A DNA stretch of 51,291 bases, from positions 1-51,291 of IMG/VR virus record IMGVR_UViG_3300033388_003186. One strand, written 5' to 3'. Shown piece after piece: positions 13,066 through 44,982 of the stretch. Below the pieces are notes generated by a model. It had not been told where the DNA came from and made no database searches. It was given only the letters and a program-made list of their open reading frames with translations. The DNA is from a virus (lineage: Duplodnaviria; Caudoviricetes). Made by a program: the position numbers and the translations under genes. The stretch's first letter is position 1. Each line of letters begins with the position of its first letter.

Positions 13066-13081
13066 GTTACAAATCTCCCTG

Positions 13082-15658: not shown

Positions 15659-16532
15659 CGATTCTTTTCCTTATGGCTTTAAGCGAATATGGTTTATGGT
15701 CTGGACAATGTAAACGAAGCTGAGATATAAGGCTTTCATAACCGAATTCCTCACCAGGGCTGCCGAGGTAACCCCTAACGAATTCATTGTAAAACTGATC
15801 GCGCTTTGAATTCTTAGAAGCTTTCTTGACAAAATATTCAGGGTTCATCTCCTTGGCATTCGCTATCCAGGTCTGCCAGGTACGATACCAATCGGCCCAC
15901 TCGCTGCCTCGCTTCAGATGGTTCCTGCAAAAATCCTCAAAGATTGGCCGGATCTCGACGACGATCCCCTTCTTCTTGGCCCATGCTTCAAAATTTTCAG
16001 GAACGGAACTTGAGTTCTCATACAGGTCCTCAAGTTCACTTGGCAATGGAGTCGGTTTTGCCTTTGTTTTTTTCTTTGGCTTTGCCGGTTTTTTCTTTAG
16101 TATTTCTTTTTCTACCTCTACCTCTACCTCTTGTAGGCTTACGGTAGGCTTATTTGAATTTCGGTTGTCTCGTAGTTTCAGTAGTTTAGGAACTTTCATT
16201 TTCAAAACGTTTTCGTTATGTTCCTGAAACGTTTCCGGTTTGTTTCCGAAACGTTCTGGAAACGGGACGCCTTCTACCCACCCCAGCATTGTAGTCTTTC
16301 GTACAAGAAAATACAGGAAAGGAAGCACTCTTTTTGGTTTTCCAGATAGCAACTCACACCAATCCCCAATAGACATTTCAAGGCTGCATCTACTATCTCT
16401 TCGTTCCATTTTTTCCGACACGGCTTCAACAAGCAGCCAATAGCGAGCAAGACCTTCAAGCCCATACTTCCGCTTGAGAAGCTTTAAAAACTCGCTGTTT
16501 CGAGCATCTGAAAAATGCTTAAACCATCTCAT
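15651..16532 (-). CDS. Phage replication initiator (lambda O/DnaD-like layout)
   Basis: MRWFKH...KYGLEGLARYWLLVE N-terminus; QEVEVEVEKE linker; DW..TWQTWI C-domain; directly upstream of dnaB. Confidence 0.8.
   Translation of the reverse strand: MRWFKHFSDARNSEFLKLLKRKYGLEGLARYWLLVEAVSEKMERRDSRCSLEMSIGDWCELLSGKPKRVLPFLYFLVRKTTMLGWVEGVPFPERFGNKPETFQEHNENVLKMKVPKLLKLRDNRNSNKPTVSLQEVEVEVEKEILKKKPAKPKKKTKAKPTPLPSELEDLYENSSSVPENFEAWAKKKGIVVEIRPIFEDFCRNHLKRGSEWADWYRTWQTWIANAKEMNPEYFVKKASKNSKRDQFYNEFVRGYLGSPGEEFGYESLISQLRLHCPDHKPYSLKAIRKRIDG
16204..16264. repeat. Iterons / putative replication origin inside the initiator gene
   Basis: AAACGTT at 16205, 16227 and 16249 (22-bp period) with intervening GTT(T)CC half-sites; AT-rich tract at about 16055-16110. 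Confidence 0.7.
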
Positions 16533-17764: not shown

Positions 17765-18073
17765 TTAGATTAGCTGGAAGTTAATCTCCTGGACCGTGAT
17801 AGCAACGGCTTCCTGGTTGAATAGAGACTTGTATTCCTCGGCAATGGCTGAAATCTTGGAAGCATTCTCGTATGCCTTCTCGTGGATGATTTCGACAACA
17901 AATGACATTTCCTTGACACCTTTCCACATACCGTATGCTTCAAAGTAGGTGTACCCATCAAAATATTTGTCGATAACCTTCTCACGAAAGTCCATCAATT
18001 CAAAATAGGTTACCTCACTTGCTCCGCCTGGGCCGGAGATTGTCCGACCAAAATACATCGTGGTTTTAATCAT
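17765..18073 (-). CDS. Putative SAM lyase (T3 SAMase/DUF3574-like)
   Basis: YFGR...FDGYTYFEAYGMWKGVKEMS...YKSLFNQEAV; start MIKTT after AAGGGG. Confidence 0.65.
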   Translation of the reverse strand: MIKTTMYFGRTISGPGGASEVTYFELMDFREKVIDKYFDGYTYFEAYGMWKGVKEMSFVVEIIHEKAYENASKISAIAEEYKSLFNQEAVAITVQEINFQLI

Positions 18074-23142: not shown

Positions 23143-23357
23143 TGGGGAGTGCTAAAAGAGCGGAAGGCGAGTCCTTTGAAGATTACAAGGACCGCCTTAA
23201 GAAAGAGGCAAAGGCCCTGAAGCACCGGCTCAAAGGTCGCTTCTCGTGGATCTCTGCAATCGTGGTACCGGACGCAAAGAAGCTCGGTGCCTTCAAGAAA
23301 TTAAAAGTAAGAGGTACCTATGTTAATACAAAAAAACGTAAAAAGAATAGCGACTGA
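23142..23357 (+). CDS. Small basic protein
   Basis: 71 aa; TAATG coupling. Confidence 0.55.
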   Translation: MGSAKRAEGESFEDYKDRLKKEAKALKHRLKGRFSWISAIVVPDAKKLGAFKKLKVRGTYVNTKKRKKNSD

Positions 23358-23937
23358 TCTCGACGAAACCCTGTTCGATATGATGACGCCGTTCAAGCAG
23401 ATTTTAATGAAGCGTCATAACGCGAGGGTGTTACATGACTCGGGATATAATATAAAGACGTTTCCCGAAACCACTGACGACGATGTATGGGACATTTTTA
23501 AATTCCTTTATGACGCCCATGTTATGTGTGAGCCGTATCCAGGAGCAAAGTCTTATCTTGAAATGATATACAGACTTTCAGGAAGGCCGCCAATCATATT
23601 GACCTCAAGGCCGTTTGAATACGCAACTCAGACGCACGCCCAGGTCAAATCCCTCATTGGCGAATTGCCATATCACCTGATTATATCCGGCACTCCGGCG
23701 GAGAAAAAATACCTATACGCCGACCACTTTGATATTATGGTTGACGACCGGATCGAAACACTCATGCACCTGGCGTCTCACTGTCAGAAGGATTGCATCC
23801 TGATAAAGAAGCCCTGGAATAGGAACGTTGACTATACTGCGGTCTCTGATAGAATAATCGAGGTAGACGGCGTTAGAGAAATAACGCCGTACCTCAGGTT
23901 ATTAATCAGGCCGTTTGATAAGCGATTTAAACTTTAA
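23320..23937 (+). CDS. HAD-family 5'(3')-deoxyribonucleotidase-like protein
   Basis: DLDETL, PYPGA, LTSR, MVDDR, PWN motifs. Confidence 0.8.
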   Translation: MLIQKNVKRIATDLDETLFDMMTPFKQILMKRHNARVLHDSGYNIKTFPETTDDDVWDIFKFLYDAHVMCEPYPGAKSYLEMIYRLSGRPPIILTSRPFEYATQTHAQVKSLIGELPYHLIISGTPAEKKYLYADHFDIMVDDRIETLMHLASHCQKDCILIKKPWNRNVDYTAVSDRIIEVDGVREITPYLRLLIRPFDKRFKL

Positions 23938-29047: not shown

Positions 29048-32000
29048 TTAATCTCCTTTTTTATACTTCGCGTAAACATTTCGGACGATTTTGTTTCTAC
29101 GCTGATAGAGATTCTCAAGCCGTCTCTTCTTCTCAGCGCCGTCCATTCGTGGGTTTAGCCATACAAGCCGGATATCCTTATTGATCTCCGACAAATCTTT
29201 TCTGGCTTTACTGAACTGTTTTTTAAGGTTATAGAATTCTTTATTGTCCCTTATCAATTTCTGTGAAGCCTTGAAGTCACCGAGTTTGTCATAATAGTTC
29301 ACGGTCCTTATCAGCTTACTCATTTCGTTATAGTGGTCATAGAAGCGAGTCATATATTTCGTATTCCTGGCCTCGCCCTTTTTAATAAACCTTGCGAACC
29401 CTGGATATTCATTCCAGGAGAGGTCTGGTCTCTCGGGGAAGTCGAATGCGTTTCTCACCATCGCGTCAGACATTCCGAGGATGAACATTCCGAACGTTCC
29501 CGTATACCCGCGAAGTAAATGCTCCATACGCTTAGGCGGAAGGTTAGCTGCACCGCCTATAAGCCGCATCGTCTCCGAGGTCCATGGGTCATAGCGCTCG
29601 CCCCAGCGAAGTCCGCTGAGTCCCTGGCCCTCTATCGGCCTACCGGTAAAGCTGACCTTATTGGCCCATTGCTCTGCAAGTGGCTTGGTGGCCTGGATAC
29701 CGAGAATAGGATTAAACGCGAAGGTCTCTGTCGTGGCGTGTTTTAAGTACGTCCACAAGTGGTCAATGTCCTCGTTGCCCACCATCACGTTACCTACGGC
29801 CTCTACCGAAGTCGAAAATAGAACTCCAGTTTCAAACGGCTTTGGTATCCTGAAGTGCAAGTCTCCAATCCAGAAATGATAATATGCGAACCGGTCCCAA
29901 TCCTCAAGCTCTTTGTACCGGTCGTCATCTTTATACATGAGCCATAACCCAAGCGACGCCAGGGCTATCATAAAAGCTTTCATTGCGAAGTGCGTCGGAT
30001 TCTCCCTGGCTGCGCGGCCCATCTTATAAAGGCCCTGTGCGCGAGCGTTAAGGAATGGTATGGTCTGGATCATAAACTGGACGATACCGGCTGCACCGCT
30101 CATTTGAAAGTCCATCAGGTCCCTGGATGCAAAGTAAGCCTTCTCGGTCGTTTCACCCTTGGCCATCAAATTCTCAGCCAACTGAATCCTGGCGGCATTC
30201 TCAGATGCAGCGCCAACCCTCTCCCATACCTTTAGCATCTTGGCAGGCGTATCAAGGATTCTGCCTATGATAGTTTTACCTTCACTTCCTAACAAGTGAT
30301 TGATAAATTTATCAGCAACGTTCTGACCCTTCAACTGCGTTTTTATATAATGGGCGAGGGCCTTTGGATCTTCAGACCTAACATAATGACCGCCGAATGC
30401 ATGGCCGGAAGCCAGGTAACCGATATAAGCCTCGGTCTCACCCCACGCCTTCCAGAATCCTCGCATCGTATCAAAGAACGGTACGAACGATTTGGATATC
30501 AGGGACGTATGTAGCGTATCCCTTATCGCATTCGCAATTCGGAAGCCAGGGCCAAATGTCGCGCCGTAGGTCAACCATTTTTTAGAGGTCCTGAAGAAGG
30601 TCATAACCGCATTATCGAACTGGTGCGGGTTCATTCCCGAGATTGCAACGTACAATTCAGGGTCATTGACCTTGAAATACTGCATTTTACCAGCTTTCTG
30701 ATAGCCGAGAAGCTGCTCACCGGACTTTTTATGAACATAGATAGCACCGGTAGCCTTTCCGTCCTTGTCCTTCTGAGCCTTCATTACGACGGTCTGAGAC
30801 CATGGCACTTCTTCGATGACCGGTACGGGAACTTCTGTTTCTGTGGTATGCTTTATGATCTTAATATCTTTTTTCTTAAATAGATCATTGCTCGTTATTT
30901 CATCTCTGATATATTCCTGGGCCTCTTTGCGGTTATCAAACACATCGTAGGTTGTTCCGGTAACCGGATTGAATACAGAGAACTCGTTCTCCTTGACAAT
31001 CCTGGTCAGTCCGGTAAGCACCTTATTGTCATTCGCGTACTTAACAGACGAAGCCCTGGCGACATTGGTTATTGAGGTATTAAGAAGGTGGGTCCAATTC
31101 TTCATTATGTTTTCCATTGGGTCACCGATCTTAGACTCTCCACCGGTAAGCCTTTTTATACCGGCACTCAGAAAATCCTTGGACCTCGGCGGCGCTCTCC
31201 AGAATTCAGCGGCGGTCACCGGATTTTCGATAACCCTGTAAAACGGAATGTAGAGATCTGATTCCCATGCTTCCCTGGACTCAGCATTTATAACGCCTGC
31301 CTTTGTAGCTATGTCAAGGATATTTTTGTTGAACGCCTGAAACTGTTCATTTATCTGTTCCCAGCTTAAGCCTTCTTTGTTTTCTGGCAGGCCAACCCAT
31401 GCCATGATTTTTTCACGGTCTTCCTTTTTCAGCCAATGCTCGCGGCCCTGTACGTCAAGAGCCTCGGCACGCTGGGCAATCAGCCAATAGAAAAATTTAA
31501 CGCCGTCATTGGGACCGAGCTTCTTTATCCATGGAAGGAAACCAGCTTTACGCATAACCTTCTTGGTGGCCGGATCTTTCATGACCTGGATGGTCATCGT
31601 TTTATCCCAATACAGCTTCCCATGCTCCAGGAATGCAGCCAGGGAGCCTACCGCACCAGGTACGCCGCGAGCCTTCATATATGCATGAGCCTCTCCGCCA
31701 AGCCATTGCTTAATTGGATCAAGCTTATCAAACGTCAGGTATCGCCAGTTGCTCCGGTCCTTACCCTTTCCGGTAAAATATCCGAAGGTCTCGGCCAGCT
31801 TCTCGCTCAGTGGCGTATCCGATCTGCCAATCTTTGAATTGAGATACTGAACCGCTCCGCGCTCCTGGACCCTGAATGCATCAAGGCTTAGGTAGATCTG
31901 CTCTTTGATCTGGACGTAGTTGGTATCCTCAACCTTATGGAAGATGACATAATTCTTAGACCAGCTTTCTTCCATGGCGGTATGTAAATTATCGATTAAC

Positions 32001-35000
32001 TCAGGGTCTATGTGCTTCTTGAGTTCACCAACAAACTCTGGATCATGGTCCATAACCTTGCTCATTGCAAAATGAGTATCCTTAAGCCTATCGGGCAGCA
32101 ATGGCCGTACCCTATTCAACTCTTCAATCAATAGATCCTGTTCGAAGAGAACCTCTTTTGGAATTCGACCGAACATTGTGTCAGCCTCAAACCTTACGCC
32201 ATCGATACCGGCTGATTCGAATACCATGGTTGCATTTTTCTTAGAACCAAGAAGGCTTTCAAGCTCGCCGTAAACGTGCTTAACCAGCGGAGTTGTAGGA
32301 TTGTTCAGTAGTCGATTTTCAAATGTATTAAAGACCTCGTTTCCAACTGGAAGATTCTCGCTTTTTTTGGCCTCGGCTATGATCCTCTTTATCTTTTTCA
32401 TATCCATAGTTTTGAACCAATCTTCAAGTACCAGGTCGTCGCTCAACTCAACCTTGTGAACGATCTTTATTCCGCCGGTTGTGTCCAGCTTATAAGAACC
32501 TTCGTCAAGGGCAATCTCCCACTCACTTATTTCTGAGTATATCGCTTCAATCAATTCACCGTCAACTCTTCCAAGTCCAGGGACAGCCGTTACAATATTG
32601 TCGTCACCGCTGAGGCGCATATTTGCATTCGATGCAAAGCCTATCATATCGTAGAGGGCGTCAGTGATATATGTCGTAGCGTCGGCAGCGGTTATCTGAC
32701 CATTATCCTTTTGCGTGTCTGACAATATATTACCGACCTCTTCCTCAAGAAATTTAATTACCTTATATCGTGCATACTCTTCAAGAGAGGCATCGCCGTC
32801 CGGCCCCATCACGCTCTTAAGCGTCCCGTCGTCATTAATATTTATTTTGTAGAAACCCTGTTTTACCCACTCTCCGTCCTTTACAATGTCAACCGTCCGA
32901 GAGAGTCCGGTAGTCTTTGCGCCTACGGGAACGCCTGTGGGAATGAGGTCTATTGTAAAGTCTTTTAGCTTCGCGCCCTTCTCGGCAACCTTCGCGTATT
33001 TCTTTCCGAGGTTGAGCGCACCGGCAAAATATTCACCCCATGCAAATGCCTGGAAGCCCTCTCCGGTTGACATATAGCCAAGGTCATATTGGGCATACTC
33101 AGCGCCGGTCCCATGATACACGGTTATCGACGCGAACACTTTTTGCTTGCGTTCATTGTTTTTGTACCCATCCAAATACTGAACAGTGGCCCCATCCCAA
33201 TTACGCCTGGCACGCTCAAGGGCGTGAGGTTTATTGAGACCTCTGATCTCGTCAACGAACGACTGTCCAGGGGTGGCACCTATTCTCGGAAAGGTTATCT
33301 TTACCCTTGCGGTAAAGGAATAGTTCTGGTCATAAAACCCCTTCTGTATAAAAGGATCTTTGCTGAACCCGAGTAGATTATTAGGAGCCTTCGAATAAGC
33401 CTCGCTGGCTGCGTATGCCTCTTTTTGATTCATCGGTATGGAAGCGAATAGAGCTTCTTGCTTACCTGGTATGGGCCTCTGTTTGCCTTCTCTGAAGTCC
33501 TTAAGCTGTTTGTCTCTTATGGGTCCTATGTTGATACCAGCGTCAAGCCATTGCTGATATAGGGCCGCCTGATTAACATCTATCAGGCCCTCTACTGGTT
33601 CTTTTTTAATGAACTCTTTGATTCCCTTGACGACATTGGGATTGAGTCTCTCAACCTCACCGAGGCGTGGCCGTCCTTGCCCTTCAAGTAATTTTGAACG
33701 CTTTCTGAACTCTCCTGAGACAATTTTTGGCTCCGCGATAAGTCCCAAGTCTCTTGATATCTTTGTTGCCTTTGCAATTTTTTTGTCATATTCCTGCCCT
33801 TTCGGATTCGTCTTCCAATCATTTGATAACACTGAATGGTTATACCATACCTGGCCGAAGCCCTCATACGACGGGAACTCACGCTGTATGGCGTGTATAG
33901 AGTCAAGCGCTGCCTGGAGAAAATCGGAGTCGGTTTGTTTAACCGTTCCGAATACATTCTTTAATTCTTTGGCCTTTACGTTATTAACGAACCGGCCTTT
34001 ATTTGTAAAGAAACCTTTCTCTCCGTCAGCTTCACGAAGTTGTTTAAATGTAATGCCAGCTTTCTTATAGAGCGCCTCGTAGTTCTTTGCGCCCCGTATT
34101 ATATTGTCGTTGTATTTTATTGCCGGTTCAATCGTCTTCTCGTTGTTCCTGTATCTCAAGTGGTGCAAGGTTAACGAATTTATCGACGGCGTATAGGTAG
34201 ATCCATGGATACCGTTGTTATCGAGCATCGTCGATAATTCAACAAGCTGATCCTCGGTCAGCGGATCTTTAAATTTAAGAACGAGACTCGGGGCCTGGTC
34301 ACCGGCAATGCCTTCCGGCCTATTCTTGTCGTTCCATCCAGACATTTGCTCGGAGAACACGCCTTCGTACTGAGCGTTATCTTTAAGGAACTGTGCCAAT
34401 ATCCCCTTTGCTATGTCAACATTGGCAAAATCAAAATCAACATCGATAGAGAATTCCCGTCCGCCACCGGCCCATCTACCTTCAGCGGGACCTATCCCTC
34501 TAATGTCAATCAGGGGGTGCGTGAACAACCTTGTTACCTCTGAGCGCATGGCGTTGTCAAGGTCTTCGGTCTTCCCTTCATCGTACCATTTTTGGTACCT
34601 TACCAGCTTCCGATAGTGTTGCGGGAAGTTATTTTTTACAACCTCAAGTACCTCTGGAGAGACGATATTGCTGATTCCAAGTGAAGCTCTACGCATAGGC
34701 TCTACCCTGGTAGGCTCTAACAGGATCGTCATTTCACCAGATTTAATTCCAACCCATCCGGCATCCCTGATCTTCTTTTCAAAACTTAACAGGGTCGTTA
34801 TATCTTCAGGGTCAAATGTAGGGTCAATCAATCCATCAGGGTCAAGGTCTGCATTGTAAATCTTGTCAGTATCTATAACCGCTCTGTGCCTGGTCTTGCC
34901 GGATATGTCGTAATCCTTTGGCAGCGTCGCGGCGTCGAAGAACTGTATCAATAAAGGATCGTCGCCCTTTACCATTTCAAATACATTGAGATCCTTGTCC

Positions 35001-38000
35001 TGCGAATAGGTGTCAAGGATATGGCGAACGGTTGGATCTCGAAGTTTAAATTTTAGATAGGCGCTGATCTGGCGCTCGTCCAGGTCGGTAATGCCTGACC
35101 ATCTCTCTGCCATGACGGTCAGCGTTTCATCAAAGGTGTATCCTTCCTGGCCCACCTTGCCCCTGGCCTTCTCCCATATATCTCTGATATGAAACCATAG
35201 GACAGCCTGAGCCATATCAGGGTGCCAGGTCTCTCCGGTCTTCTTGGACATTGCGGCTTCAACGTCTCTCATGTGGCGCTGAACCCTGAGATGCTGGACC
35301 TGTGATAAAGCCTTGTCCTTAGCCTTTTCAGCGAGAGGACCGGAGCTTGCCGAGGGATAGAAATAACGGTTAACCCAAATATCAACAACCGTCTCAACTG
35401 CATTCCTTACCCCGTAGTCACGAAGGATAGAGGCGAACGTCTCAGCGAAAGCCTTGACCTTTACCTCTCCACCCTTGAACTTCATGGCGGTAAAGTCGAT
35501 CCTGAACATCTCGTCAATGGTCTTGGCGCTCAATACACGGCCAACCGTCTTCGCGTCAACGAGTCCGAACTTCGTTTTCTTATCGACCTGTCCAGCTTTC
35601 TCCAGCATTCTGAACTTAATAAACTCGACCATGTTGGCTAATGTGCCTTTGTTGCGACTCGTGTGAGATAGCATGGCCAGGCCCATAAATAGATTCAGGT
35701 CGGTGTCATTCTCGAATACGGTCCTCAGGTACTTTATATTATCATACCAATGCTTTGCATTAGGATCTTTTTTATCTGTCGCCAGAAGGTCCTTGACGGT
35801 CTCCTGGACGGTAGGAAAGGGGTACTCTTCCATGCTCTTCCCTATGGTCTGGATTCTTCCGGCCAGGGTCTTGTCAACTCCATTGTCAGTCAGAAATTTC
35901 CTCAGGCCCTTGGCTCCGCCGGTCAACTCCAGGAGCTTCTCAATACTCGACCGTTGTTCATTTATGGTATATGATTTACCGGCAACCTTGACCTTTATTG
36001 ACTTTCCTTCCAGGGCCTTTTTAAGGTCGATGGATTGCATAATGCTCGGAGATTCGGTCGGAAACTCATTGAATAATGATTTTATCTGATTTTCCCTAAA
36101 GGGTATCCAGGACCCAAACTCTTCCTGGGCATCAAATATCGACATTTTTTCCTCGGGGTCTATAATTTCGAGGAACTCTTCGTCGGACATTTCGTTAAGT
36201 ATACCCTCTCCTGCATCGCTCTCCAAATACTCCTGGAGATATCCACGATACGGTTGTGGTATCTCTCTCCTGTTCAGATATTCTATGCCATCGAATCTCT
36301 TTCCAAATTCATCTTTCATTTGAAATAGAGTGTCAACTATTTCCTCTTCCATCCTCGCCTGAGACACTTCTTCGCCTATGCTCGTATCGGCATTTATTTC
36401 TTTTAACTCTGATTCAAGTTGGTCTAAGCGGTCTTTATGCTCCGGCTTCCACAATCTATTATGATCCTTTAGTTGATTGTAAACGTCCGTCGCGCTGAAC
36501 GCACCCTTATCTATAAGCCTTATAGGGTTCTTTATGTTCAAGAGAACCGGATAGATTCTTTGCGTCTCTGGATAACCTTCGTAATCACCGAGGATTATAT
36601 TCGCTTGTTCTGGCTGTCCGAAGTGAGGGCCGAGGTCTGACCTTGAAAAACTAAATATTGCAAAATCCTTTTGCGCTCTCGTTCCGTGGAACACAACCAT
36701 TGGCTCCCCGTCTTTGCCCACGACCTTCGTATCCTTCGCCCACTCAAGAAGTTCCTTATTAATGGTTATCGAAGCAGACAACCTTTTAACCTCGGCTGCA
36801 TCGCGCTGTGCTACCTGAACTTCCGGCTTATACTGACGCCGGAGCATATCCTCGAAGCGATAGATTCCCTCGGAGATATTGCCGAGTTCTTCAAGCTCGT
36901 TCCTGGCAATGTTCATGTGTTCTGACATTGTGCCAAAAACGTGTTCCTCATTCATCGCCAGGGAGATAGCGGTCATCATCTCTTTGTCTGTCTTCGCATC
37001 CTTCATGCGTTTGCGCTGATCTCTGATACGTTCCTCGGCAGCATCCATGCTCGGGAAGTTGTCTCTCCAAGCAGGGTAACCCTTCTCTATCATTACGCGC
37101 CGGACTGTTTCGCCAACCGGAGAATCCCAGCCATTATCGTCAAGATATTCGGCAATGGAGTCAAGATTCATCTCCTGATAGACTGTATACTTCTGGTCCA
37201 TCTGATACTCGAAGTCCAGGATTTTATATAGATTTTCTTCGCTCTCTTCCTGAAGGTCGGCACGATCCTGCTCATACTCTTCAACAAGAATATCTACAAT
37301 CTCTTCTGCACCATCTGGCCAGATAGGCGGCTCATGCTCTTCCTGAACGGCATTCTCAATATCTTTCGATACATCGAATTCCCATGTATTACCCATTTTA
37401 ATCCAGCCGATCTTTCCGCCTGTAAACATTTCAGAAACAGTAAGCCCCGACTCTTCAGCAGCTTCATCGCTAAACTGAGAGTTGAACCAGGTCTCGGGGC
37501 TTTCGTGTCGGTACAGCCACTCGTCGTAAACTCCCTTCGTGTAACCAAGGACTCTCTCAGAAATAAGATGAAATTCTTTCAGAGTTTCATCGCGGTAGTG
37601 CTTTGCAAAAGAGTCCATCTTGTCTTCTGGTATTTTTTCATAAGCCCGAAGCTTGAGGTCAATAACGTGCATATATTTAATGGCCCGATAAGGTTCATCC
37701 GGCATAAAATCCCTGAAGTCATATTCGTCCTGCAAGTCTCTTGGCAATATGACCGGATCTTCTTTCTTTGCCATAACGATAGAAGCCTGTACGTCCGGCT
37801 TTTTTAGTTGCTTAGAACTGAACTCCAGGAGCCTGCGGTAGAACATCTCGTGCATATCTCTATTTTGGAGCCAGGACTTTGTAACGACGTTCTCGTCACC
37901 ATCGACCTCGTTATCTGTCCCTAACTGTGTCCCTGTTTCTGTCCCTTCATACGTCGCCAGAATATAGGTGTTAGTATGTGAAATTATATCTTTATTTGCT

Positions 38001-41000
38001 TCGAGGAAATTCAGAGTTGTCCGGTAGGTGTCCGCTGTTTCTGTCCATAGCTTTCCCTTCTCCATTCCGGCCAGGCCAACCATGACATTCGGGATAAAGT
38101 TGATATTAAGGCGTCGCATTTTCTCGACGGCTTCATCAATATGTTTGGTGCGGTGAGGCTTATTTATCTTTGCAAGAATGTCATCGTTATAGGATTCCAT
38201 TCCAATCTCAGCGTACTTGATACCGGACTTCTTCAGGAAGTCATCGGACATTTTATTGAATGCCGGTGCGGTTGTCTGAATGATAAACCCTTGAAAGTCG
38301 GGGTTCTCCGCCTTGATCTGTTTATTAACCTCAACGAGGCTTTCAAAATTATCTGCCTGGCCGAAGGTCTTGTCGTTCAGGTAGACCAGCTTAAACCCAA
38401 GGTTTGCAAAGGATTTAGCCTCTGCCATAAAGTCCTTATTGGGGATGACCTTTTTGGGTACCGTACAGAAATGGCACTTATGTTTACAGCCCTTTGACAT
38501 TTCAAGGCGAGGGATAACCTTGGTACCCTTGAACTGGCGGTAGTCCGCACCCTTCTTATAAGGCACCTTCAGCAACTTCGCGGCGGATTCCATATCCTCT
38601 GCGAACTTGATATTTTTGATCCCTTCAAAATACTTAGGATCGACGTAACCACCGACAATGATATCACCGTCAAAGCTACCAGCAAGCTCTTTGATGAAAT
38701 GCTTATTGGCGTCCATGGCCGAGAACATAATCGACTCATAACCCGAGGCTTTAAAGTACGCTTTCGCCTCTTCGACATTTCTGACGACATAGGTATCAGC
38801 ATTTTTAAAACTCTTGGCACCTTGAGCCATCCAGGTCGGCACTTCCCAAAAGTCCGTAGGACGCTCATAGCCGTCACGTTCTGAGTACAGAAGGTCGAAG
38901 TATGCATCACCCTGAGAAGTCGCTGCCTCGCGCCCCCTGAGAGACGAGACCTGTACCATGGCCATTGTACTCTTACCACCCTTAACCCTCACGTTCTTTG
39001 TGGGCAGTATCGCGCTTCCCGAGGCTGTTACCTTCTCCCCGTCGGCGTAGCTCTTCCAAGACCTTTTAAGGTAGCCATCAAGCTTTTCTTCAATTTGCTT
39101 TTGTTTTTTTGTATCCAGGCTAAGTCGTGCTGATTCAGCATATTGCTGACTGATCGTGTCAAGTAACTTAGCTGTGCGCCCGTCAGCAGCGAGGTCTTTA
39201 TTCCAAGCAGCCGCGAAGCGTCCCGCGATGATGTTAGGCTCATAGATCTCCCCTTCATATTTAAAGTTTGTATAGTTTTCGTCTTCGTTTACAACCTTAA
39301 AGCCAAGCGACTCTATTATAGCGTTATTGCCCATTGCGTTCCAGGACTCTATAACCCTGCCACCTTCTGCAACGGCTGAGATAAGAGCTAATGCCATATC
39401 GTCACCGGCCATAACCATCTTCTGCGTCAGGACGATTTTGTTACCGTCAAGCATATACATATTGCTAATATCTTTAATGAGATCCTCAGATATCAGATAC
39501 CCACGCTCTTTGGTTTTACTTACCTGGTCGGCAGCCATAGCTATATCATTGCCGTCGTCCCTGTCTACAAAACGATCATGGGTAGTGGTGTATCCATCTG
39601 CCTCTGGATCGTAATCCGGCATAAACCCTAACTCTTGCTCTATCTCACCCCACGCGAGCGAGTGCATTGCGGCCTCGTATATTTTGCCTTCATACATGAC
39701 CGCCGGAGACTTGATCGCTTCCGGCCCCTTCATATTAATGGACGCCTGCATATCAATGCTAATCGCGTCAATGGAAGTCGGTGAGATCCTGGCAGCCGTT
39801 AAATGCTTCTCGGCTATCTCGGAGTATGCGCCTATAACGGCGTCCTCAATTTTGTCGATATCCTTTCTCAGGTAAGAATAGGCTTCCCCCTGCATCACTA
39901 TACCCTTAATCATGGATAGCAAATTTCTGAGGATATCAAGAAGTCTTATCGCCAGGGATGGATTGTTGACGTTTAAATCTGCAACAAGTTTTGTGATAAA
40001 AACAGGGTCAACCATTTTAGATGAAATATAGTCGGCCACGAATTCTTGTTTCATTTTTTCGTAGCCTTCTTTATTTTCATCTTTCTCTTTTTTCGACCAA
40101 CCCTTGTCTGGTGCCTGCGTAAAGGGCTTCAGTCCTACCCTTTCCCTCGCTGCATTTATGTCGCGCTGGTACCGTTTCCACTCTGTCTCATTAACGCTCT
40201 TCCAGAATATGTCCTCAACTGCCTTGGCAAGCGCGGGGTGCTTTTGCTGAATCTCATGCCAGGACTCGTGACCGTATATGGCAAGCAGAGCGCCTTGCTG
40301 GCTGTCTGCATTTAGCATGACGCCGCCATTGGTCATATAATACCCGTTCGAAGTTCTCAGTAATTTTTCGGTGCTTGTGTAATATGCAACCGGACCAAGG
40401 CCCAGCTTTTCACGAAGATCGGAGACGAGCCTTTGTTCCAATGTTAAGTCGGTAACCTGTTTGATCTTGCTCGGGTCTACGTTGCTTATCGTGCCTGGCG
40501 CTCCTGGCGCTGAAATGTTGGTGACGAAGCTGTCGAATAGTTTCTTTGCTTCAACGGCCCGTTTTGCCCCCTGAGGCTTCGCTCCTGCCTTTTTCTCAGG
40601 CTTTTTGGCCTTCTCTGGTGCAACGGGCTGCTTTTCAGCCTTGCGTTCAACCTCGCGGCTCTCAGCGAGATCTAACTCTTGCTTGTAGGATTTCTCACCA
40701 TAGGCCACTTCGTATGCAATATCAATGCCACGATTGATTAATTTTCCAACCCTTCCAGATGGAATTGATTTATAGACCTTTCCCTTGATCCTCTCGTCCT
40801 GAACTTCGTCAGGTCTGACGCTCGGTACATTTCTCCATTGCGTCAGCGTAGGTCTCTCAAGCAGCTTTAGGTCCTGGTCGGCAAGAGCGGACTGCATCAT
40901 CTGATATCGTTCTATGTGCGGCATAGGTTCGATCTTGTTGTCGTAAAGATCCTGGACCTTGGACTTCTGTTTGTCGTCCAGCCTATTCCATAATCGATCT

Positions 41001-42838
41001 ATTTTGTCAACGGCTGATAATGCAGATTCCGGCTTTCCTGCCATTTCACCCGCCACTTTGGCGGGAGCCTTTTTAGCTTTTTCGGTTGTAGGCTTTTTAG
41101 CTTTTTCTGCGGCCCTCTCTGTCGCCTGCAATCTCGCAACATCAACGAGCATCTGATATGCCTCGGGCTGCGTTTCCTTGAGGGCAATTTGTTGGTCGGT
41201 AAGCCCAAGCTCTTCCTCGGGTATCTCAGCTTCTTCGACCGGCGCAATCTCTTCGACCGGAGCCGCTTCAATATCGGCAGGCGCTTCCATACCGGCAGGC
41301 GTCTCTATCTCCCTACCTACGGGCATGGCTTGCTGGCGCTGTGCTTCCTCTGATACAGCCTTCGTCTCTTCGATGATCCTCACGGCATTGTTAAGAACGT
41401 CCTGGGCGTCAACCGAGCGCTTAATCTCTACCGGAGCGGACTTCGCACCAGCTTTGGCTTTACCGAGGATATCCTTAGATACAGTCTCGCCCTTGCTCTT
41501 CAATATAGAGTCGATCTCTTTATTAAAGCGTTTATTTGTATGTACGTCAGCATGGCCACCGCCAAGGATCATACCCCATAGGCCAGCGACAAGACCTTCA
41601 TCGACACCGGCTGCGCTCGCACGAGAGGCCCGTTCCTTTATCATCTCCCATTTTCCGGCCTTGTCCGCCGCCTGGAATTTTTCTTTAAAGGTTGGATCTC
41701 CAATAGCCTCTGTGAATTCATCGATATAAGACTGAACGTATTCAGTCAGCATCTCAGATGAACCACCAACGATTTTGTTGGCAACCGCACGAAAATATTT
41801 ATTGTTGAGCCAAGCCTTAGGTATTCCTTTTAGCACAAGGCCCATACTTAAAGACTCAAGTGAACCTTGAAGCGCACCATCTATAAGCGCCGAGGTTATT
41901 GCTTCATCTATTGTACCGCCAAGCTCGCGGACACGCCTGTATTTAGATCCGTATATCTGAGGGAACATAAATAAAGCGCCACCGACAAAACCACCGACTG
42001 CGCCTGCGGCCACCTGGCCCAATATCTGCGGACCCATAGCAACGAAGTTGTTTATAAATTTGTCGAGCTTGCCCATCAGATAAACGTTGTCCTGGTAACT
42101 CGCGGTTGGGTCCAGGAGCTTATCCATATAGGCATCACCGATTTTCATCTGCGCTTTGGCGTCGTCGGATATCCAATTCTCGGTAGCCGTTCCAAGGTCA
42201 AGTTCTTTCACAACCATATCGCGGATTGATCTACCTGTCCATTCGTATGAGGACTGTATTTGTTTAAAGCCCTCATAAATCGCCTTGTCCAATATTAGCT
42301 CACCAGGCTTCTCGCCTGGATATTCTTTTATGTCGTATTTTTCCTGAAGCTTTGCTATCGAAGCGGCACCGATCTCTTCGTGGAATTGTGTATCAAATAG
42401 CTCCGCCTTGTATTCATCGCTTTCATCACCAGGGGATATAAGATTCCATATATCCTGGGCCGTTTTAATGGCGAACTTAAGGCCACCCATATCCGGCATC
42501 CACTTATAGGCTGTCTGTGCGCCAGTGGTTCTTGCAGCCTGCTTCTTCCAATCAGCCTGGGCCTTATACTCGGCAAGGACCTTCGAGTGTCTTTCCTCGA
42601 AGAACTTGCCCTTTTCCCATTGCATCTCGAAGTCATATTCTGGACCAAAATCGTCCATAATATAATCGATATATTTTTGGTTTGCATCATCTTTAGATTG
42701 TGGAACTGCAACCGGATCACCGGTCGTAGGCTCGGGAGAGCCTGCGGGGATCGATTGAGTCTTATCGCCTTGAAAGTCACCGTATTTAAATACACGGTTG
42801 ACAGGCATTGCTGAATCGCCGTACTTAAAATCTGCCAT
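29048..42838 (-). CDS. Giant polyvalent (putative ejected internal virion) protein, 4596 aa
   Basis: HExxH (about 40265), B12-type radical SAM CxxxCxxC (38465-38488), ART-like FHGT/YHGT domains, HhH-like, SAM-lyase-like, C-terminal LPD38-like (IPFLNARAQG...RIPKPFE.G). Confidence 0.9.
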   Translation of the reverse strand: MADFKYGDSAMPVNRVFKYGDFQGDKTQSIPAGSPEPTTGDPVAVPQSKDDANQKYIDYIMDDFGPEYDFEMQWEKGKFFEERHSKVLAEYKAQADWKKQAARTTGAQTAYKWMPDMGGLKFAIKTAQDIWNLISPGDESDEYKAELFDTQFHEEIGAASIAKLQEKYDIKEYPGEKPGELILDKAIYEGFKQIQSSYEWTGRSIRDMVVKELDLGTATENWISDDAKAQMKIGDAYMDKLLDPTASYQDNVYLMGKLDKFINNFVAMGPQILGQVAAGAVGGFVGGALFMFPQIYGSKYRRVRELGGTIDEAITSALIDGALQGSLESLSMGLVLKGIPKAWLNNKYFRAVANKIVGGSSEMLTEYVQSYIDEFTEAIGDPTFKEKFQAADKAGKWEMIKERASRASAAGVDEGLVAGLWGMILGGGHADVHTNKRFNKEIDSILKSKGETVSKDILGKAKAGAKSAPVEIKRSVDAQDVLNNAVRIIEETKAVSEEAQRQQAMPVGREIETPAGMEAPADIEAAPVEEIAPVEEAEIPEEELGLTDQQIALKETQPEAYQMLVDVARLQATERAAEKAKKPTTEKAKKAPAKVAGEMAGKPESALSAVDKIDRLWNRLDDKQKSKVQDLYDNKIEPMPHIERYQMMQSALADQDLKLLERPTLTQWRNVPSVRPDEVQDERIKGKVYKSIPSGRVGKLINRGIDIAYEVAYGEKSYKQELDLAESREVERKAEKQPVAPEKAKKPEKKAGAKPQGAKRAVEAKKLFDSFVTNISAPGAPGTISNVDPSKIKQVTDLTLEQRLVSDLREKLGLGPVAYYTSTEKLLRTSNGYYMTNGGVMLNADSQQGALLAIYGHESWHEIQQKHPALAKAVEDIFWKSVNETEWKRYQRDINAARERVGLKPFTQAPDKGWSKKEKDENKEGYEKMKQEFVADYISSKMVDPVFITKLVADLNVNNPSLAIRLLDILRNLLSMIKGIVMQGEAYSYLRKDIDKIEDAVIGAYSEIAEKHLTAARISPTSIDAISIDMQASINMKGPEAIKSPAVMYEGKIYEAAMHSLAWGEIEQELGFMPDYDPEADGYTTTHDRFVDRDDGNDIAMAADQVSKTKERGYLISEDLIKDISNMYMLDGNKIVLTQKMVMAGDDMALALISAVAEGGRVIESWNAMGNNAIIESLGFKVVNEDENYTNFKYEGEIYEPNIIAGRFAAAWNKDLAADGRTAKLLDTISQQYAESARLSLDTKKQKQIEEKLDGYLKRSWKSYADGEKVTASGSAILPTKNVRVKGGKSTMAMVQVSSLRGREAATSQGDAYFDLLYSERDGYERPTDFWEVPTWMAQGAKSFKNADTYVVRNVEEAKAYFKASGYESIMFSAMDANKHFIKELAGSFDGDIIVGGYVDPKYFEGIKNIKFAEDMESAAKLLKVPYKKGADYRQFKGTKVIPRLEMSKGCKHKCHFCTVPKKVIPNKDFMAEAKSFANLGFKLVYLNDKTFGQADNFESLVEVNKQIKAENPDFQGFIIQTTAPAFNKMSDDFLKKSGIKYAEIGMESYNDDILAKINKPHRTKHIDEAVEKMRRLNINFIPNVMVGLAGMEKGKLWTETADTYRTTLNFLEANKDIISHTNTYILATYEGTETGTQLGTDNEVDGDENVVTKSWLQNRDMHEMFYRRLLEFSSKQLKKPDVQASIVMAKKEDPVILPRDLQDEYDFRDFMPDEPYRAIKYMHVIDLKLRAYEKIPEDKMDSFAKHYRDETLKEFHLISERVLGYTKGVYDEWLYRHESPETWFNSQFSDEAAEESGLTVSEMFTGGKIGWIKMGNTWEFDVSKDIENAVQEEHEPPIWPDGAEEIVDILVEEYEQDRADLQEESEENLYKILDFEYQMDQKYTVYQEMNLDSIAEYLDDNGWDSPVGETVRRVMIEKGYPAWRDNFPSMDAAEERIRDQRKRMKDAKTDKEMMTAISLAMNEEHVFGTMSEHMNIARNELEELGNISEGIYRFEDMLRRQYKPEVQVAQRDAAEVKRLSASITINKELLEWAKDTKVVGKDGEPMVVFHGTRAQKDFAIFSFSRSDLGPHFGQPEQANIILGDYEGYPETQRIYPVLLNIKNPIRLIDKGAFSATDVYNQLKDHNRLWKPEHKDRLDQLESELKEINADTSIGEEVSQARMEEEIVDTLFQMKDEFGKRFDGIEYLNRREIPQPYRGYLQEYLESDAGEGILNEMSDEEFLEIIDPEEKMSIFDAQEEFGSWIPFRENQIKSLFNEFPTESPSIMQSIDLKKALEGKSIKVKVAGKSYTINEQRSSIEKLLELTGGAKGLRKFLTDNGVDKTLAGRIQTIGKSMEEYPFPTVQETVKDLLATDKKDPNAKHWYDNIKYLRTVFENDTDLNLFMGLAMLSHTSRNKGTLANMVEFIKFRMLEKAGQVDKKTKFGLVDAKTVGRVLSAKTIDEMFRIDFTAMKFKGGEVKVKAFAETFASILRDYGVRNAVETVVDIWVNRYFYPSASSGPLAEKAKDKALSQVQHLRVQRHMRDVEAAMSKKTGETWHPDMAQAVLWFHIRDIWEKARGKVGQEGYTFDETLTVMAERWSGITDLDERQISAYLKFKLRDPTVRHILDTYSQDKDLNVFEMVKGDDPLLIQFFDAATLPKDYDISGKTRHRAVIDTDKIYNADLDPDGLIDPTFDPEDITTLLSFEKKIRDAGWVGIKSGEMTILLEPTRVEPMRRASLGISNIVSPEVLEVVKNNFPQHYRKLVRYQKWYDEGKTEDLDNAMRSEVTRLFTHPLIDIRGIGPAEGRWAGGGREFSIDVDFDFANVDIAKGILAQFLKDNAQYEGVFSEQMSGWNDKNRPEGIAGDQAPSLVLKFKDPLTEDQLVELSTMLDNNGIHGSTYTPSINSLTLHHLRYRNNEKTIEPAIKYNDNIIRGAKNYEALYKKAGITFKQLREADGEKGFFTNKGRFVNNVKAKELKNVFGTVKQTDSDFLQAALDSIHAIQREFPSYEGFGQVWYNHSVLSNDWKTNPKGQEYDKKIAKATKISRDLGLIAEPKIVSGEFRKRSKLLEGQGRPRLGEVERLNPNVVKGIKEFIKKEPVEGLIDVNQAALYQQWLDAGINIGPIRDKQLKDFREGKQRPIPGKQEALFASIPMNQKEAYAASEAYSKAPNNLLGFSKDPFIQKGFYDQNYSFTARVKITFPRIGATPGQSFVDEIRGLNKPHALERARRNWDGATVQYLDGYKNNERKQKVFASITVYHGTGAEYAQYDLGYMSTGEGFQAFAWGEYFAGALNLGKKYAKVAEKGAKLKDFTIDLIPTGVPVGAKTTGLSRTVDIVKDGEWVKQGFYKININDDGTLKSVMGPDGDASLEEYARYKVIKFLEEEVGNILSDTQKDNGQITAADATTYITDALYDMIGFASNANMRLSGDDNIVTAVPGLGRVDGELIEAIYSEISEWEIALDEGSYKLDTTGGIKIVHKVELSDDLVLEDWFKTMDMKKIKRIIAEAKKSENLPVGNEVFNTFENRLLNNPTTPLVKHVYGELESLLGSKKNATMVFESAGIDGVRFEADTMFGRIPKEVLFEQDLLIEELNRVRPLLPDRLKDTHFAMSKVMDHDPEFVGELKKHIDPELIDNLHTAMEESWSKNYVIFHKVEDTNYVQIKEQIYLSLDAFRVQERGAVQYLNSKIGRSDTPLSEKLAETFGYFTGKGKDRSNWRYLTFDKLDPIKQWLGGEAHAYMKARGVPGAVGSLAAFLEHGKLYWDKTMTIQVMKDPATKKVMRKAGFLPWIKKLGPNDGVKFFYWLIAQRAEALDVQGREHWLKKEDREKIMAWVGLPENKEGLSWEQINEQFQAFNKNILDIATKAGVINAESREAWESDLYIPFYRVIENPVTAAEFWRAPPRSKDFLSAGIKRLTGGESKIGDPMENIMKNWTHLLNTSITNVARASSVKYANDNKVLTGLTRIVKENEFSVFNPVTGTTYDVFDNRKEAQEYIRDEITSNDLFKKKDIKIIKHTTETEVPVPVIEEVPWSQTVVMKAQKDKDGKATGAIYVHKKSGEQLLGYQKAGKMQYFKVNDPELYVAISGMNPHQFDNAVMTFFRTSKKWLTYGATFGPGFRIANAIRDTLHTSLISKSFVPFFDTMRGFWKAWGETEAYIGYLASGHAFGGHYVRSEDPKALAHYIKTQLKGQNVADKFINHLLGSEGKTIIGRILDTPAKMLKVWERVGAASENAARIQLAENLMAKGETTEKAYFASRDLMDFQMSGAAGIVQFMIQTIPFLNARAQGLYKMGRAARENPTHFAMKAFMIALASLGLWLMYKDDDRYKELEDWDRFAYYHFWIGDLHFRIPKPFETGVLFSTSVEAVGNVMVGNEDIDHLWTYLKHATTETFAFNPILGIQATKPLAEQWANKVSFTGRPIEGQGLSGLRWGERYDPWTSETMRLIGGAANLPPKRMEHLLRGYTGTFGMFILGMSDAMVRNAFDFPERPDLSWNEYPGFARFIKKGEARNTKYMTRFYDHYNEMSKLIRTVNYYDKLGDFKASQKLIRDNKEFYNLKKQFSKARKDLSEINKDIRLVWLNPRMDGAEKKRRLENLYQRRNKIVRNVYAKYKKGD

Positions 42839-42858: not shown

Positions 42859-43914
42859 TTAAGCTCCAGAAGCTACACTGTATAGGTCTACATTTTCAAC
42901 CGGCTTCTTTGCGATAACAGGCTTGCCTTCATCGCTGTCACCAGTTGCTTCGTCAACGTCGCCTTGCGTTAATTCTGCGAGAATCTTTTTCGCGGCCTGG
43001 GTTATTCCTTCCCTGCTCAGTCCAGGGTTGGCTGCACTCGCCTTGTCTTTGGCCCAGGACCTAACTTTCATCATAACAGCATCTTCAAGGTCTTGGAAAT
43101 AGACCCGCTTACCAGTTGTGGCTTTGTCAGGGTCATACGTTTCCGGCGAATATTTATCAACATCAGTCGATCCACTTTTGGTCTCTTCCCTGTCAGGCAT
43201 ACCACCGTTACCCTGGTCTCCATGAAGCTTTTGATCCAACTCCAATGCTGCAAGATAGTTGTCTATGCCCACTTGTTTTGCGGTCTTGCCTTGATTGCGC
43301 TCGTCGAAAGATATAGAGTCTTCATCGTAGTCGCCCTTGGCCTCAGCTATATATTGCGCCTGCATCTTCAGGGCGTCTTTCTGGCTCATGCCTTTCCTGG
43401 CATTCTTTTGTTTATCCGCCGCATCCTTGCGTTTTTTTTCTATCTGATATTTGAATCGATCAACAAGCATATTACGGTTGCTCTGAAGGCCCCTGTAAAA
43501 TTGATCCCTCTCCGCTTTATCCCTGAAGCCGGACGATGCTGGACGGTGAAACATTTGCTCATAGATCTCACTCATAAATTTCTTTGACTTCATGTGCGCT
43601 TGTGCCATAGCCCAAGGATCATTGATATCAGGTGCCTTAGGTTCTTCGCCCCTTCCTGGCATAGCAGAAGGAGCGGGACCTGAGGCGCTGCCTGGCTGGT
43701 TGCCTGGGCCGCCGCCGCCAATCAGGTATGGGTCAGCCTGGACGGGGATATTCCCCATACTCTTTTCAACCTCACCCTGGATATTGGAGTTAGAAACATT
43801 CGTGAATGTCGGTACAAAAGCCTTGCCTGTTTGAGGGTCCATATACAACCCCTGGTTAGGATCATAGACTTTTCCGGCTCTCCCCTGTTCGAGGTAATCT
43901 CCTATTTGACTCAT
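42859..43914 (-). CDS. Putative internal virion/ejection protein
   Basis: Hydrophilic, G/Q/K/D-rich; immediately upstream of the giant gene. Confidence 0.55.
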   Translation of the reverse strand: MSQIGDYLEQGRAGKVYDPNQGLYMDPQTGKAFVPTFTNVSNSNIQGEVEKSMGNIPVQADPYLIGGGGPGNQPGSASGPAPSAMPGRGEEPKAPDINDPWAMAQAHMKSKKFMSEIYEQMFHRPASSGFRDKAERDQFYRGLQSNRNMLVDRFKYQIEKKRKDAADKQKNARKGMSQKDALKMQAQYIAEAKGDYDEDSISFDERNQGKTAKQVGIDNYLAALELDQKLHGDQGNGGMPDREETKSGSTDVDKYSPETYDPDKATTGKRVYFQDLEDAVMMKVRSWAKDKASAANPGLSREGITQAAKKILAELTQGDVDEATGDSDEGKPVIAKKPVENVDLYSVASGA

Positions 43915-43926
43915 TGTCTTTTCCTC

Positions 43927-44982
43927 TTACTGTGGCATATTTTGCGCCCGTACATCATTGGGCATTCTGTTCCAGTTGGCCAGTTGGTTAGAATAGTCTG
44001 ACTTCGCCGTACTAACCTCAAGCTCCCAATTCATCAGGTCCTCTCTCATGCTTTGGTCGTAGCCTGCGAGAGCCTCTTTGCTGGCAACATCGAACTGAGC
44101 ATTATAGATACCAACATCTCGACGGTGCTTACCTTCTGCGCTTCTACGGCCTTCCTGGCTACCCTTGAGAGTTGTCTGCCCGAGGGCCTCGCCAAATCCT
44201 TCCAGGGCTGCCTTTATAATCTGGCCTCTCGCCTGAGGGTTGTTAACATTGGCGCTACCAAGAATCGCTTGCTGTGCGCTCTTGCTCAGAGAACCCTTAT
44301 TCGTTTGAATGAATTCCTCTCTGACAGCACGCTCTTTGGCCTCGTCATATTCAGGGGCCTCGTAATCTGGAAGGTCCAGGGAAGCACCAAACTCAAAGGG
44401 GCCTGGGAGATTAAGCTCAGGGTAGTCAAAGACAGGACCCTGATAAATGGTTCCGCCGGATCTTCCATTGGCCTTTGCATAATTGCTACCGGCTGAAGCA
44501 GGGTCCCGCACAACGTCGTCGTAATAGCCCTCTCCGGTAACAACTCCACCACTCTGATCTCCAATTATGGTGTCGGTTGTATCCTGGGTCATCCTTGAAA
44601 GCTCTTCAATATCTGCGAGGTAGCTGTCCCAATCGAAATCAGTCTGATCGTTAAATTGGTTGGGGTCTCCACCGGAATTAGTCCAGGTTCCGTCAGGTCT
44701 CTTATAGATCTTTTCTCCGGTACTTCCAGGAGCCGCGCCTGCTCCACCAATATCCCATACATCAGCATCGTTTGGCATCATACCTACACCGGATTTTTGA
44801 CCGGATCGCTGGTCAAGCCGTTGCTGCTCATGCCCCTGATCCCAATTATAGGTAGGCATCGCTCCCTGCATCGAATTTTGACCGGTTATCTTTTTCGTTA
44901 CAACCTTTGGAGTCGAGGCATTAGAACTCGGCTGGGTTTTTGATATTCCTTCTTCTGCACCAAAAGTTCCGTAAGGGTCCAT
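43927..44982 (-). CDS. Putative internal virion/ejection protein
   Basis: G/Q/S-rich with helical C-terminus; located after tail genes. Confidence 0.55.
   Translation of the reverse strand: MDPYGTFGAEEGISKTQPSSNASTPKVVTKKITGQNSMQGAMPTYNWDQGHEQQRLDQRSGQKSGVGMMPNDADVWDIGGAGAAPGSTGEKIYKRPDGTWTNSGGDPNQFNDQTDFDWDSYLADIEELSRMTQDTTDTIIGDQSGGVVTGEGYYDDVVRDPASAGSNYAKANGRSGGTIYQGPVFDYPELNLPGPFEFGASLDLPDYEAPEYDEAKERAVREEFIQTNKGSLSKSAQQAILGSANVNNPQARGQIIKAALEGFGEALGQTTLKGSQEGRRSAEGKHRRDVGIYNAQFDVASKEALAGYDQSMREDLMNWELEVSTAKSDYSNQLANWNRMPNDVRAQNMPQ

Follow-up and report, generated by a model that had tools for sequence, protein, structure and literature searches.

IMG/VR virus record IMGVR_UViG_3300033388_003186 (Duplodnaviria; Caudoviricetes), 51,291 bases long and estimated to be 87% complete, was analyzed over its whole length and is called the window here. 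Its minus strand encodes a giant protein of 4596 amino acids (aa), in which a radical S-adenosylmethionine (SAM) enzyme domain, the module, is embedded. Here, we describe the module, its phage-enriched family, the question of whether it binds cobalamin (B12), and what it may do if delivered with the virion. The protein and the module lie as follows:

29048..42838, minus strand: polyvalent protein P0001, a likely large ejection protein (open reading frame [ORF] of 4596 aa)
37787..38977, minus strand: radical SAM module, aa ~1288-1684 (Pfam, family profile, alignment, and model)
38519..38977, minus strand: N-terminal Rossmann domain with a cobalamin-binding fold, aa ~1288-1440
37787..38518, minus strand: partial triosephosphate isomerase (TIM) barrel, aa ~1441-1684
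38465..38488, minus strand: CxxxCxxC, predicted [4Fe-4S] motif, C1451/C1455/C1458

The radical SAM module and its family

An earlier sequence-only reading had proposed a B12-type radical SAM enzyme of about 440 aa at this place, within an LPD38-type polyvalent protein. All the motifs that it quoted are present in the minus-strand ORF, namely, IMFSAMDAN (aa 1370-1378), IIVGGY (aa 1393-1398), LEMSKGCKHKCHFC (aa 1445-1458, with CxxxCxxC), NDKTFG (aa 1488-1493), EIGMES (aa 1544-1549), and NVMVGL (aa 1584-1589), and the polyvalent setting held as well, with LPD38 and ART-PolyVal domains in the same ORF. The module is real but shorter (~395 aa), since the first ~45 residues of the proposed interval fall outside the family profile (aa 1284-1692); stand-alone relatives start at the equivalent of aa ~1290.

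Pfam Radical_SAM (PF04055) matched aa 1446-1591 (E 5.1e-12; 46.7-50.9 bits against a cut-off of 29.5), and the three cluster cysteines were invariant in 113 of 113 aligned relatives. A model built from the 113-sequence alignment (predicted local distance difference test [pLDDT], 95.6; predicted template modeling score [pTM], 0.92) showed a five-strand Rossmann domain, with an additional helix behind strand 1, and a partial barrel after it; this answers the check for a TIM-barrel/B12 fold that the reading had suggested. Because of the invariant cysteines and the quality of this model, the module is not a chance resemblance; judged from alignment and model, it is an intact radical SAM enzyme domain and a genuine member of the superfamily, with predicted catalysis. 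Barrel residues R1444, Y1486, D1489, K1490, Q1521, E1544, K1560, N1584, and N1623 were invariant or nearly so, and lysine or arginine occupied positions 1326 and 1654. After strand 1, the Rossmann domain carried a helix and a WExPxW loop that are specific to the family; it kept S and GG and contained neither GxGE nor cysteine. A single-sequence fold of the module was discarded (pLDDT, 47.9), a single-sequence search of PDB with the module gave nothing meaningful, and no close member was present in a viral fold library (best matches, 10-14% identity). NCBIfam returned 17 matches (E <= 0.01), all far below their cut-offs (best, 42 bits against 600), with B12-type and MiaB-type families leading.

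Word-based searches brought up 54 relatives similar in length, plus 40 that were longer. When 1.84 billion representatives were searched with a profile, 375 clusters matched at E <= 1e-30, and about 120 of the 150 matches listed in the representative search exceeded 1000 aa. Of 77 viral loci in IMG/VR (several of them near-copies), 51 have the module inside an ORF of 1113-5270 aa, 22 have a stand-alone gene (368-439 aa), and 4 are fragmentary or intermediate in length. From 185,579 GTDB genomes, 8 of the 14 returned loci were true members, 4 on phage-like contigs and 4 in cellular operons; the remaining 6 (L087-L092), weak matches to other radical SAM proteins, do not enter the family count. 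No match to the family was found in 50,697 GenBank phage records, an absence that would explain why it has been overlooked. The family is large, enriched in phages, and was not found described in print: a literature search on polyvalent or ejection proteins and radical SAM, with supplements and subscription papers outside its range, returned no description of the module, in line with the earlier remark that no such module was known in LPD38 proteins. The word "radical" is absent from a jumbo-phage survey and an NAD-ADPr survey, and radical SAM is mentioned only for DndC in PMC10853773.

Relative to locus L001, nonsynonymous divergence (dN) was 0.115 in the N-domain and 0.173 in the barrel versus 0.34-0.54 in five flanking segments, with synonymous divergence (dS) saturated; in this comparison the module was the most constrained part of the giant outside the C-terminal region. 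At the sequence level, this shows purifying selection on the module. Among 19 LPD38 relatives gathered regardless of the module, the kind of search that the reading had called for, 4 carry it, and because only these 4 do, we regard the module as an exchangeable bead. In a quick tree of 80 rows, drawn from relatives that are not independent, 41 fused copies were placed within the stand-alone ones; a single fusion origin with later reversion is not proven.

A sister family (L093 and 242 hits) is cellular and uncharacterized and was found in Actinomycetes, Myxobacteria, and Mesorhizobium, with Streptomyces, Micromonospora, and Cystobacter among the hosts. It aligned with the module family at hhalign 100% (E 1e-40 over 345 columns; ~21% identity) and is alike in its WExPxW, DKTFGQ, Q-T, and ExGxE motifs and in having no GxGE; it differs in lying in a cellular operon with agmatinase-family and APH kinase genes. 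To our knowledge, no function has been assigned to it. Members of the module family itself lie in operons of Aliirhizobium and Halovulum. All five genera are aerobes.

Further observations concern the architecture of relatives. Other beads fused with the module in P0089, P0095, P0076, and L081 were a nicotianamine-synthase-like domain, mCpol, GGDEF, and DnaJ. The module of L014 (ORF 4859-16519) contained an in-frame insertion of ~140 aa, between profile positions 311 and 308-392, and that of L081 (ORF 6677-14290) was likewise interrupted in frame, with a longer match span; an intein or an inserted domain is possible in both. Two LPD38 giants without the module, L156 (ORF 3044-11608; Cx9Cx4C plus CxxCxxxC) and L163 (ORF 2-11599), carried other cysteine clusters, and iron-sulfur cargo may thus have entered LPD38 giants twice. 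Plasmid operons L095 and L096 encode more distant relatives and gave no function.

Fold and the cobalamin question

Over the full length, the best fold matches of the model were AprD4 (Z 22.6; root mean square deviation [rmsd], 4.0; 357 residues aligned) and, tied with it, QCMT/MgmA (Z 22.0; rmsd, 4.0; 320 residues aligned), followed by CysS (Z 20.4), MiaB/RimO (Z 19.6-19.9), OxsB (Z 19.2), and then TsrM. Model residues 1-138 superposed on methionine synthase (MetH), MtaC, AppA-SCHIC, and other cobalamin domains (Z ~10; 105-107 residues aligned). The fold cannot settle the cobalamin question, because, according to a 2026 review, AprD4 and ArsL homologs have Rossmann-related domains that do not bind cobalamin (PMC12931638).

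Pfam B12-binding (PF02310) did not match the module of the window; across the family, 15 of 113 members matched at E <= 0.1 (best, 0.0014) and none at the cut-off, with L083 at 24.1 bits against 32.1. The GxGE motif of TokK and TsrM makes room for the nucleotide tail of cobalamin. Expected after strand 5, it did not follow the GG strand in any of the 112 aligned members, 150 long relatives, or 59 sister-family members examined, and it was present in TokK, TsrM, and the plasmid controls L094 and L095. A further candidate test for cobalamin, glycine two residues before the strand-3 serine, was dropped since TokK has alanine there. Because the distant relative L095 combines the WExPxW loop with GxGE and passes Pfam B12-binding (E 2e-13), the sequences suggest that the family descended from a cobalamin binder and lost cobalamin later.

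AprD4 (1,2-diol dehydratase; PDB 6FD2; NF033070) is alike in its Rossmann-related domain and partial barrel (357 of 397 residues aligned) and differs in identity (15%), in having DPVF where the module family has DKTF, and in its aminoglycoside substrate; NF033070 was not among the NCBIfam matches of the module at E <= 0.01, and sister L093 reached 42 bits against 500. Class B enzymes (QCMT/MgmA [9CCB], TokK, TsrM, OxsB, and CysS) share the domain order, the fold (Z 14-22), S/GG, and CxxxCxxC, from which the module departs by its absent GxGE, an insertion of ~30 residues after strand 1, and the lack of a large C-terminal domain. The methylthiotransferases MiaB, RimO, and MtaB have a similar two-domain fold (Z 19.6-19.9), and some databases label relatives of the module "MiaB." A MiaB/RimO-type methylthiotransferase was rejected, as the N-domain has no cysteine and hence no auxiliary cluster and TRAM gave no match; the label is a misannotation.

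The earlier assignment to B12-type radical SAM enzymes stands in part: the module is a radical SAM enzyme with a cobalamin-fold Rossmann domain, but B12 binding was not borne out, given GxGE in 0 of 112 members, Pfam B12-binding below its cut-off, and AprD4 as the top fold match. "Cobalamin-type" holds for the fold, not for class membership. As judged from these motifs, the B12 label leans negative. We lean slightly toward a module that has no cobalamin and would hence carry out dehydration, rearrangement, or adduct removal of the AprD4/viperin type, not methyl transfer; that it binds cobalamin is a little less than an even prospect.

Probable delivery with the virion and genomic setting

The giant gene is part of a late structural (virion) gene block, where it is preceded by an adaptor gene (SU10_adaptor E 0.00075; PHROG 437), a 1105-aa gene, a 642-aa gene, and two 351-aa genes. 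Other features of the giant and the window are as follows:

36065..36715, minus strand: ART-PolyVal domain, aa 2042-2258 (Pfam E 1.6e-11)
29402..29926, minus strand: LPD38 domain, aa 4305-4479 (Pfam E 1.1e-35)
40256..40270, minus strand: HExxH zincin-type motif, aa 857, possible MPTase processing peptidase (motif only, without a profile match)
35153..35797, minus strand: DUF7178-like, Ogg2-type helix-hairpin-helix (HhH) glycosylase domain, aa ~2348-2562 (iterated local profile E 8e-10; hhalign 73.7%)
32963..33127, minus strand: beginning of what may be another ART-PolyVal-like domain, aa ~3238-3292 (weak, E 0.018)
42859..44982, minus strand: two 351-aa cysteine-free genes directly upstream of the giant, likely smaller ejection proteins
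17765..18070, minus strand: SAM-lyase-like gene (DUF3574 E 1.2e-15; PF23780 E 0.006, below cut-off)

The two 351-aa genes gave no family match in domain scans, and a direct search of the 4596-aa protein with Pfam DUF7178 gave no match. With several conflict domains, LPD38/ART-PolyVal, and a virion-gene setting, the chain resembles the phage polyvalent proteins of Iyer et al. (2017; PMC5512222), which are likewise giant and multidomain, with LPD38, ART-PolyVal, HExxH, a virion block, and shuffled domains; "radical," "cobalamin," "B12," and "glycosylase" are absent from the main text of that paper, its supplementary FTP files lying outside the search. Elsewhere in the window, a ClpP-family protease gene lies outside the structural block (8507-9211, minus strand), and a 5'-deoxynucleotidase (NT5C) gene follows RecT (23320-23937, plus strand).

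The 4596-aa protein has only 3 cysteines, all of them cluster ligands, against 45.6 expected from the composition of 15 other window proteins (61 cysteines in 6146 aa). Neither 351-aa gene product has any, compared with 1.1% for the product of the 1105-aa gene and 1.25% for that of the 642-aa gene. Within the family, the median number of extra cysteines per module was 0 in giants (n = 45) versus 5 in stand-alone copies (n = 21); four stand-alone genes nested among giants in the tree had 7-9, and 9 of the 19 LPD38 relatives had no cysteine in the part covered. Ejection proteins of the Schitoviridae are reported to be suppressed in cysteine, a feature connected with their crossing of the periplasm (PMC11445570 and PMC3715699). 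The Schitoviridae/T7 ejection proteins (N4 gp50 and DEV gp71) are like the window giant in size, in cysteine suppression, and in two adjoining smaller cysteine-free genes; unlike them, it has no RNA polymerase and keeps exactly three cysteines for a predicted iron-sulfur cluster. The LPD38 protein gp47 of phi24B, which has this domain in common with the 4596-aa protein, was found in virions by proteomics and proposed as an ejection protein (bioRxiv 10.64898/2026.04.10.717836), and the N4 virion RNA polymerase (vRNAP), at 4+/-1 copies, has been proposed to refold in the cytoplasm after ejection (PMC13434306).

By this analogy and by its composition, the giant is probably packaged in the virion and ejected, and delivery at infection, as the reading had proposed, is made likely by the cysteine purge and the contrast within the family. 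The module would then travel unfolded and metal-free and be loaded with metal by the host. An anaerobic host, which the reading had thought indicated, would for this reason not be needed, and the occurrence of members in Aliirhizobium and Halovulum and of the sister family in Streptomyces, Micromonospora, and Cystobacter speaks against it as a necessity. A single sequencing run contained half of the words sampled from the window; it is a sediment metagenome and may be the sample of origin. No RNA run was listed for the region, and four further runs with shares of 0.05-0.14 were left out as evidence on habitat.

Conserved basic residues, among them the invariant or near-invariant R1444, K1490, and K1560, suggest a phosphate-bearing substrate. 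Cellular members L084 and L085 lie between an APH kinase gene and an inositol-monophosphatase-family gene. In Aliirhizobium L083 (9869-14794), the family member stands with class II aldolase, aldehyde dehydrogenase, cobalamin adenosyltransferase, and nucleoside phosphorylase genes, with an amino-acid ABC transporter upstream; the aldolase, aldehyde dehydrogenase, and phosphorylase genes among these would resemble 5'-deoxyadenosine salvage. A nucleoside phosphorylase gene lies near the L086 member as well. The sister-family operon (L097-L133 and L093) combines the radical SAM gene with agmatinase-family, APH kinase, and unnamed ~350-aa genes, sometimes with HAD hydrolase or cobalamin adenosyltransferase, and looks like a small-molecule pathway.

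In phages, 8 of 26 hand-picked giants include a fused NUDIX domain. DUF7178 (e.g., the gene at L053, 1466-2110) resembles Ogg2 8-oxoguanine glycosylases (E 0.002), with lysine and aspartate kept at matching positions, and was named by no paper found in the literature search; in several marine T7-like podovirus genomes it is located close to the left end. At 8 of 24 non-giant loci it is a neighbor, 25 of 50 module-bearing phage records contain it, and an iterated profile detected it in 29 of 35 giants of >3000 aa (with 0 hits in 185 reversed controls). Of the 19 LPD38 relatives, those with the module have it in 4/4 cases and those without in 0/15, counts made with a profile trained partly on module-bearing giants. 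An obligate partnership of DUF7178 with the module was rejected by the reverse test, which showed the link to be one-way.

The window SAM-lyase-like gene has the G, aromatic, E, and Q-E residues of Svi3-3, whose conserved residues have been described (PMC7877911), and the pattern suggests that the DUF3574 phage proteins are SAM lyases. Such genes lie within ~1.6 kb downstream of stand-alone members at 5 of 24 non-giant viral loci and at L082, and DUF3574 was found in 7 of 50 module-bearing records; the small SAM-lyase-like neighbors gave no PDB match and one sub-threshold Pfam hit. Within the giant, a SAM-lyase domain at aa ~2775-2830 (window ~34349-34516, minus strand) was rejected (hhalign 0.2%/0.8%; no Pfam or Atlas hit); a G-R-W-x4-E ... 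Q pattern there, kept in 6 giants, is a SAM-lyase-reminiscent lead. The genomic company of the module is that of early counter-defence.

Possible role in infection

Our preferred interpretation is that the giant would be ejected into its host together with phage DNA, that the module would refold there and take up a host [4Fe-4S] cluster, and that its deoxyadenosyl radical would, without cobalamin, abstract hydrogen from a phosphorylated sugar or nucleotide, so that host defence would be blunted early in infection. As a complete chain, ejection through refolding and host cluster loading to cobalamin-free chemistry on such a substrate is plausible, if somewhat short of probable. A counter-defence role early in infection is, taken by itself, fairly probable, and a nucleotide or DNA substrate is evenly balanced against any other. 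If one target has to be picked, it would be a host-installed mark or lesion on phage DNA as it enters, dealt with jointly by the module and the Ogg-like glycosylase domain that the giant also carries, since a target that is nearby and low in copy number fits a slow enzyme of which few copies are ejected.

Several findings weigh against this interpretation. The Rossmann domain conserves features of the cobalamin fold (strand-3 S in 112/113, N at S+5 in 100/113, and strand-4 GG in 113 and 112/113), QCMT, a true B12 enzyme, ties with AprD4 in the fold match, and a cobalamin adenosyltransferase gene lies near the enzyme at 4 of 43 cellular loci (two probable near-copies). The substrates of cellular relatives seem to be small molecules rather than DNA. 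The 4/4 association with DUF7178 was counted with a partly module-trained profile, and in the reverse direction the module was present in 8 of 36 DUF7178 phage records, 7 of these 8 being seeds; 36 GenBank phage records matched DUF7178 and none had the module. On delivery, cysteine is likewise missing from two short proteins of the window (148 and 261 aa), 3 of 45 giants have >=0.35% cysteine outside the module, and the HExxH peptidase motif could cut the module off before packaging. The tree is a quick one, with nonindependent relatives.

The features retained in the Rossmann domain can also be read as those of a truly cobalamin-dependent (class B) enzyme whose tail pocket has diverged and which after ejection would use host cobalamin to C-methylate (as TokK and QCMT do) or rearrange (as OxsB does) a base, sugar, or protein. 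Its five-strand Rossmann domain is complete and superposes on cobalamin domains, the fold matches to QCMT, CysS, and OxsB reach Z 22.0, 20.4, and 19.2, and besides S, N at S+5, and GG, a hydrophobic residue (L/M in 107/113) is kept at S+2, the lower-axial loop position, comparable to the TokK loop with lower-axial Trp76 (PMC12931638). The cobalamin adenosyltransferase beside 4 of 43 cellular loci, the WExPxW loop of L095 with its Pfam B12-binding match, and a Dam-like methylase directly upstream at 3 of 24 non-giant loci (two near-copies) fit such an enzyme too. Every member tested lacks GxGE, none reaches the Pfam B12-binding cut-off, and an ejected, refolding protein would have to regain a bulky cofactor; we consider a class B enzyme rather unlikely. 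An attack on host protein or RNA (a defence enzyme, RNA polymerase, or the ribosome) by radical cleavage or ArsL-like aminocarboxypropyl transfer would suit the low copy number of an ejected protein, would join the ART and GNAT protein modifiers of other polyvalent proteins (PMC7824862), and has a precedent in the B12-free Rossmann architecture of ArsL, whose profile matched weakly (E 5e-8, far below cut-off). The module lacks both an RCCLKC-type tail and additional cysteines, nothing matched TRAM or another RNA-binding domain, and cellular relatives sit in kinase/phosphatase small-molecule operons, so that this alternative is improbable.

Still less probable is that the enzyme serves as a SAM sink, starving restriction-modification or bacteriophage exclusion (BREX) in the way of the T3 SAMase, a purpose that the sequence-only reading had included. 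SAM cleavage is known to defeat type I restriction-modification and BREX (bioRxiv 10.1101/2023.02.27.530186), and SAM-lyase-like genes do lie downstream of stand-alone members at 5 of 24 non-giant loci and L082; the window, however, already has a separate SAM-lyase-like gene, DUF3574 occurs in only 7 of 50 module-bearing records, and a conserved second-substrate pocket would be superfluous. Reductant-dependent enzymes of the radical SAM type turn over slowly, and a few copies could hardly drain the pool. Equally remote is that the enzyme would act late, while still in the cell that produces the virions and, for example, on progeny DNA or virion proteins, or that the module is cleaved off and never enters the next host: the gene does stand in the late structural block and MPTase domains can process polyvalent proteins before packaging (PMC5512222), but the fused module is purged of nonligand cysteines, which suggests envelope crossing, and stand-alone members adjoin DUF7178, itself near the left end of several T7-like podovirus genomes.

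Extended to the family, the preferred interpretation would be that the iron-sulfur enzyme is injected in apo form by hundreds of uncultured phages and metallated by the host within minutes, with cobalamin-free radical chemistry on the entering genome or an immune nucleotide; this would form a radical-based class of counter-defence that mirrors host viperin and would go back to one recruitment of a stand-alone early gene into ejection proteins, with all nonligand cysteines purged. We hold this wider picture to be unlikely in its entirety.

If delivery and host activation hold true, phages would deliver a cofactor-dependent, oxygen-sensitive enzyme through the tail for the host to activate, and radical chemistry would join the known counter-defence toolkit. 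The family is a test case for cobalamin loss in cobalamin-fold radical SAM enzymes and warns against the "MiaB" and "B12-binding" labels applied to its members, and its stand-alone members of 370-440 aa, together with the cellular operons, make the chemistry directly testable.

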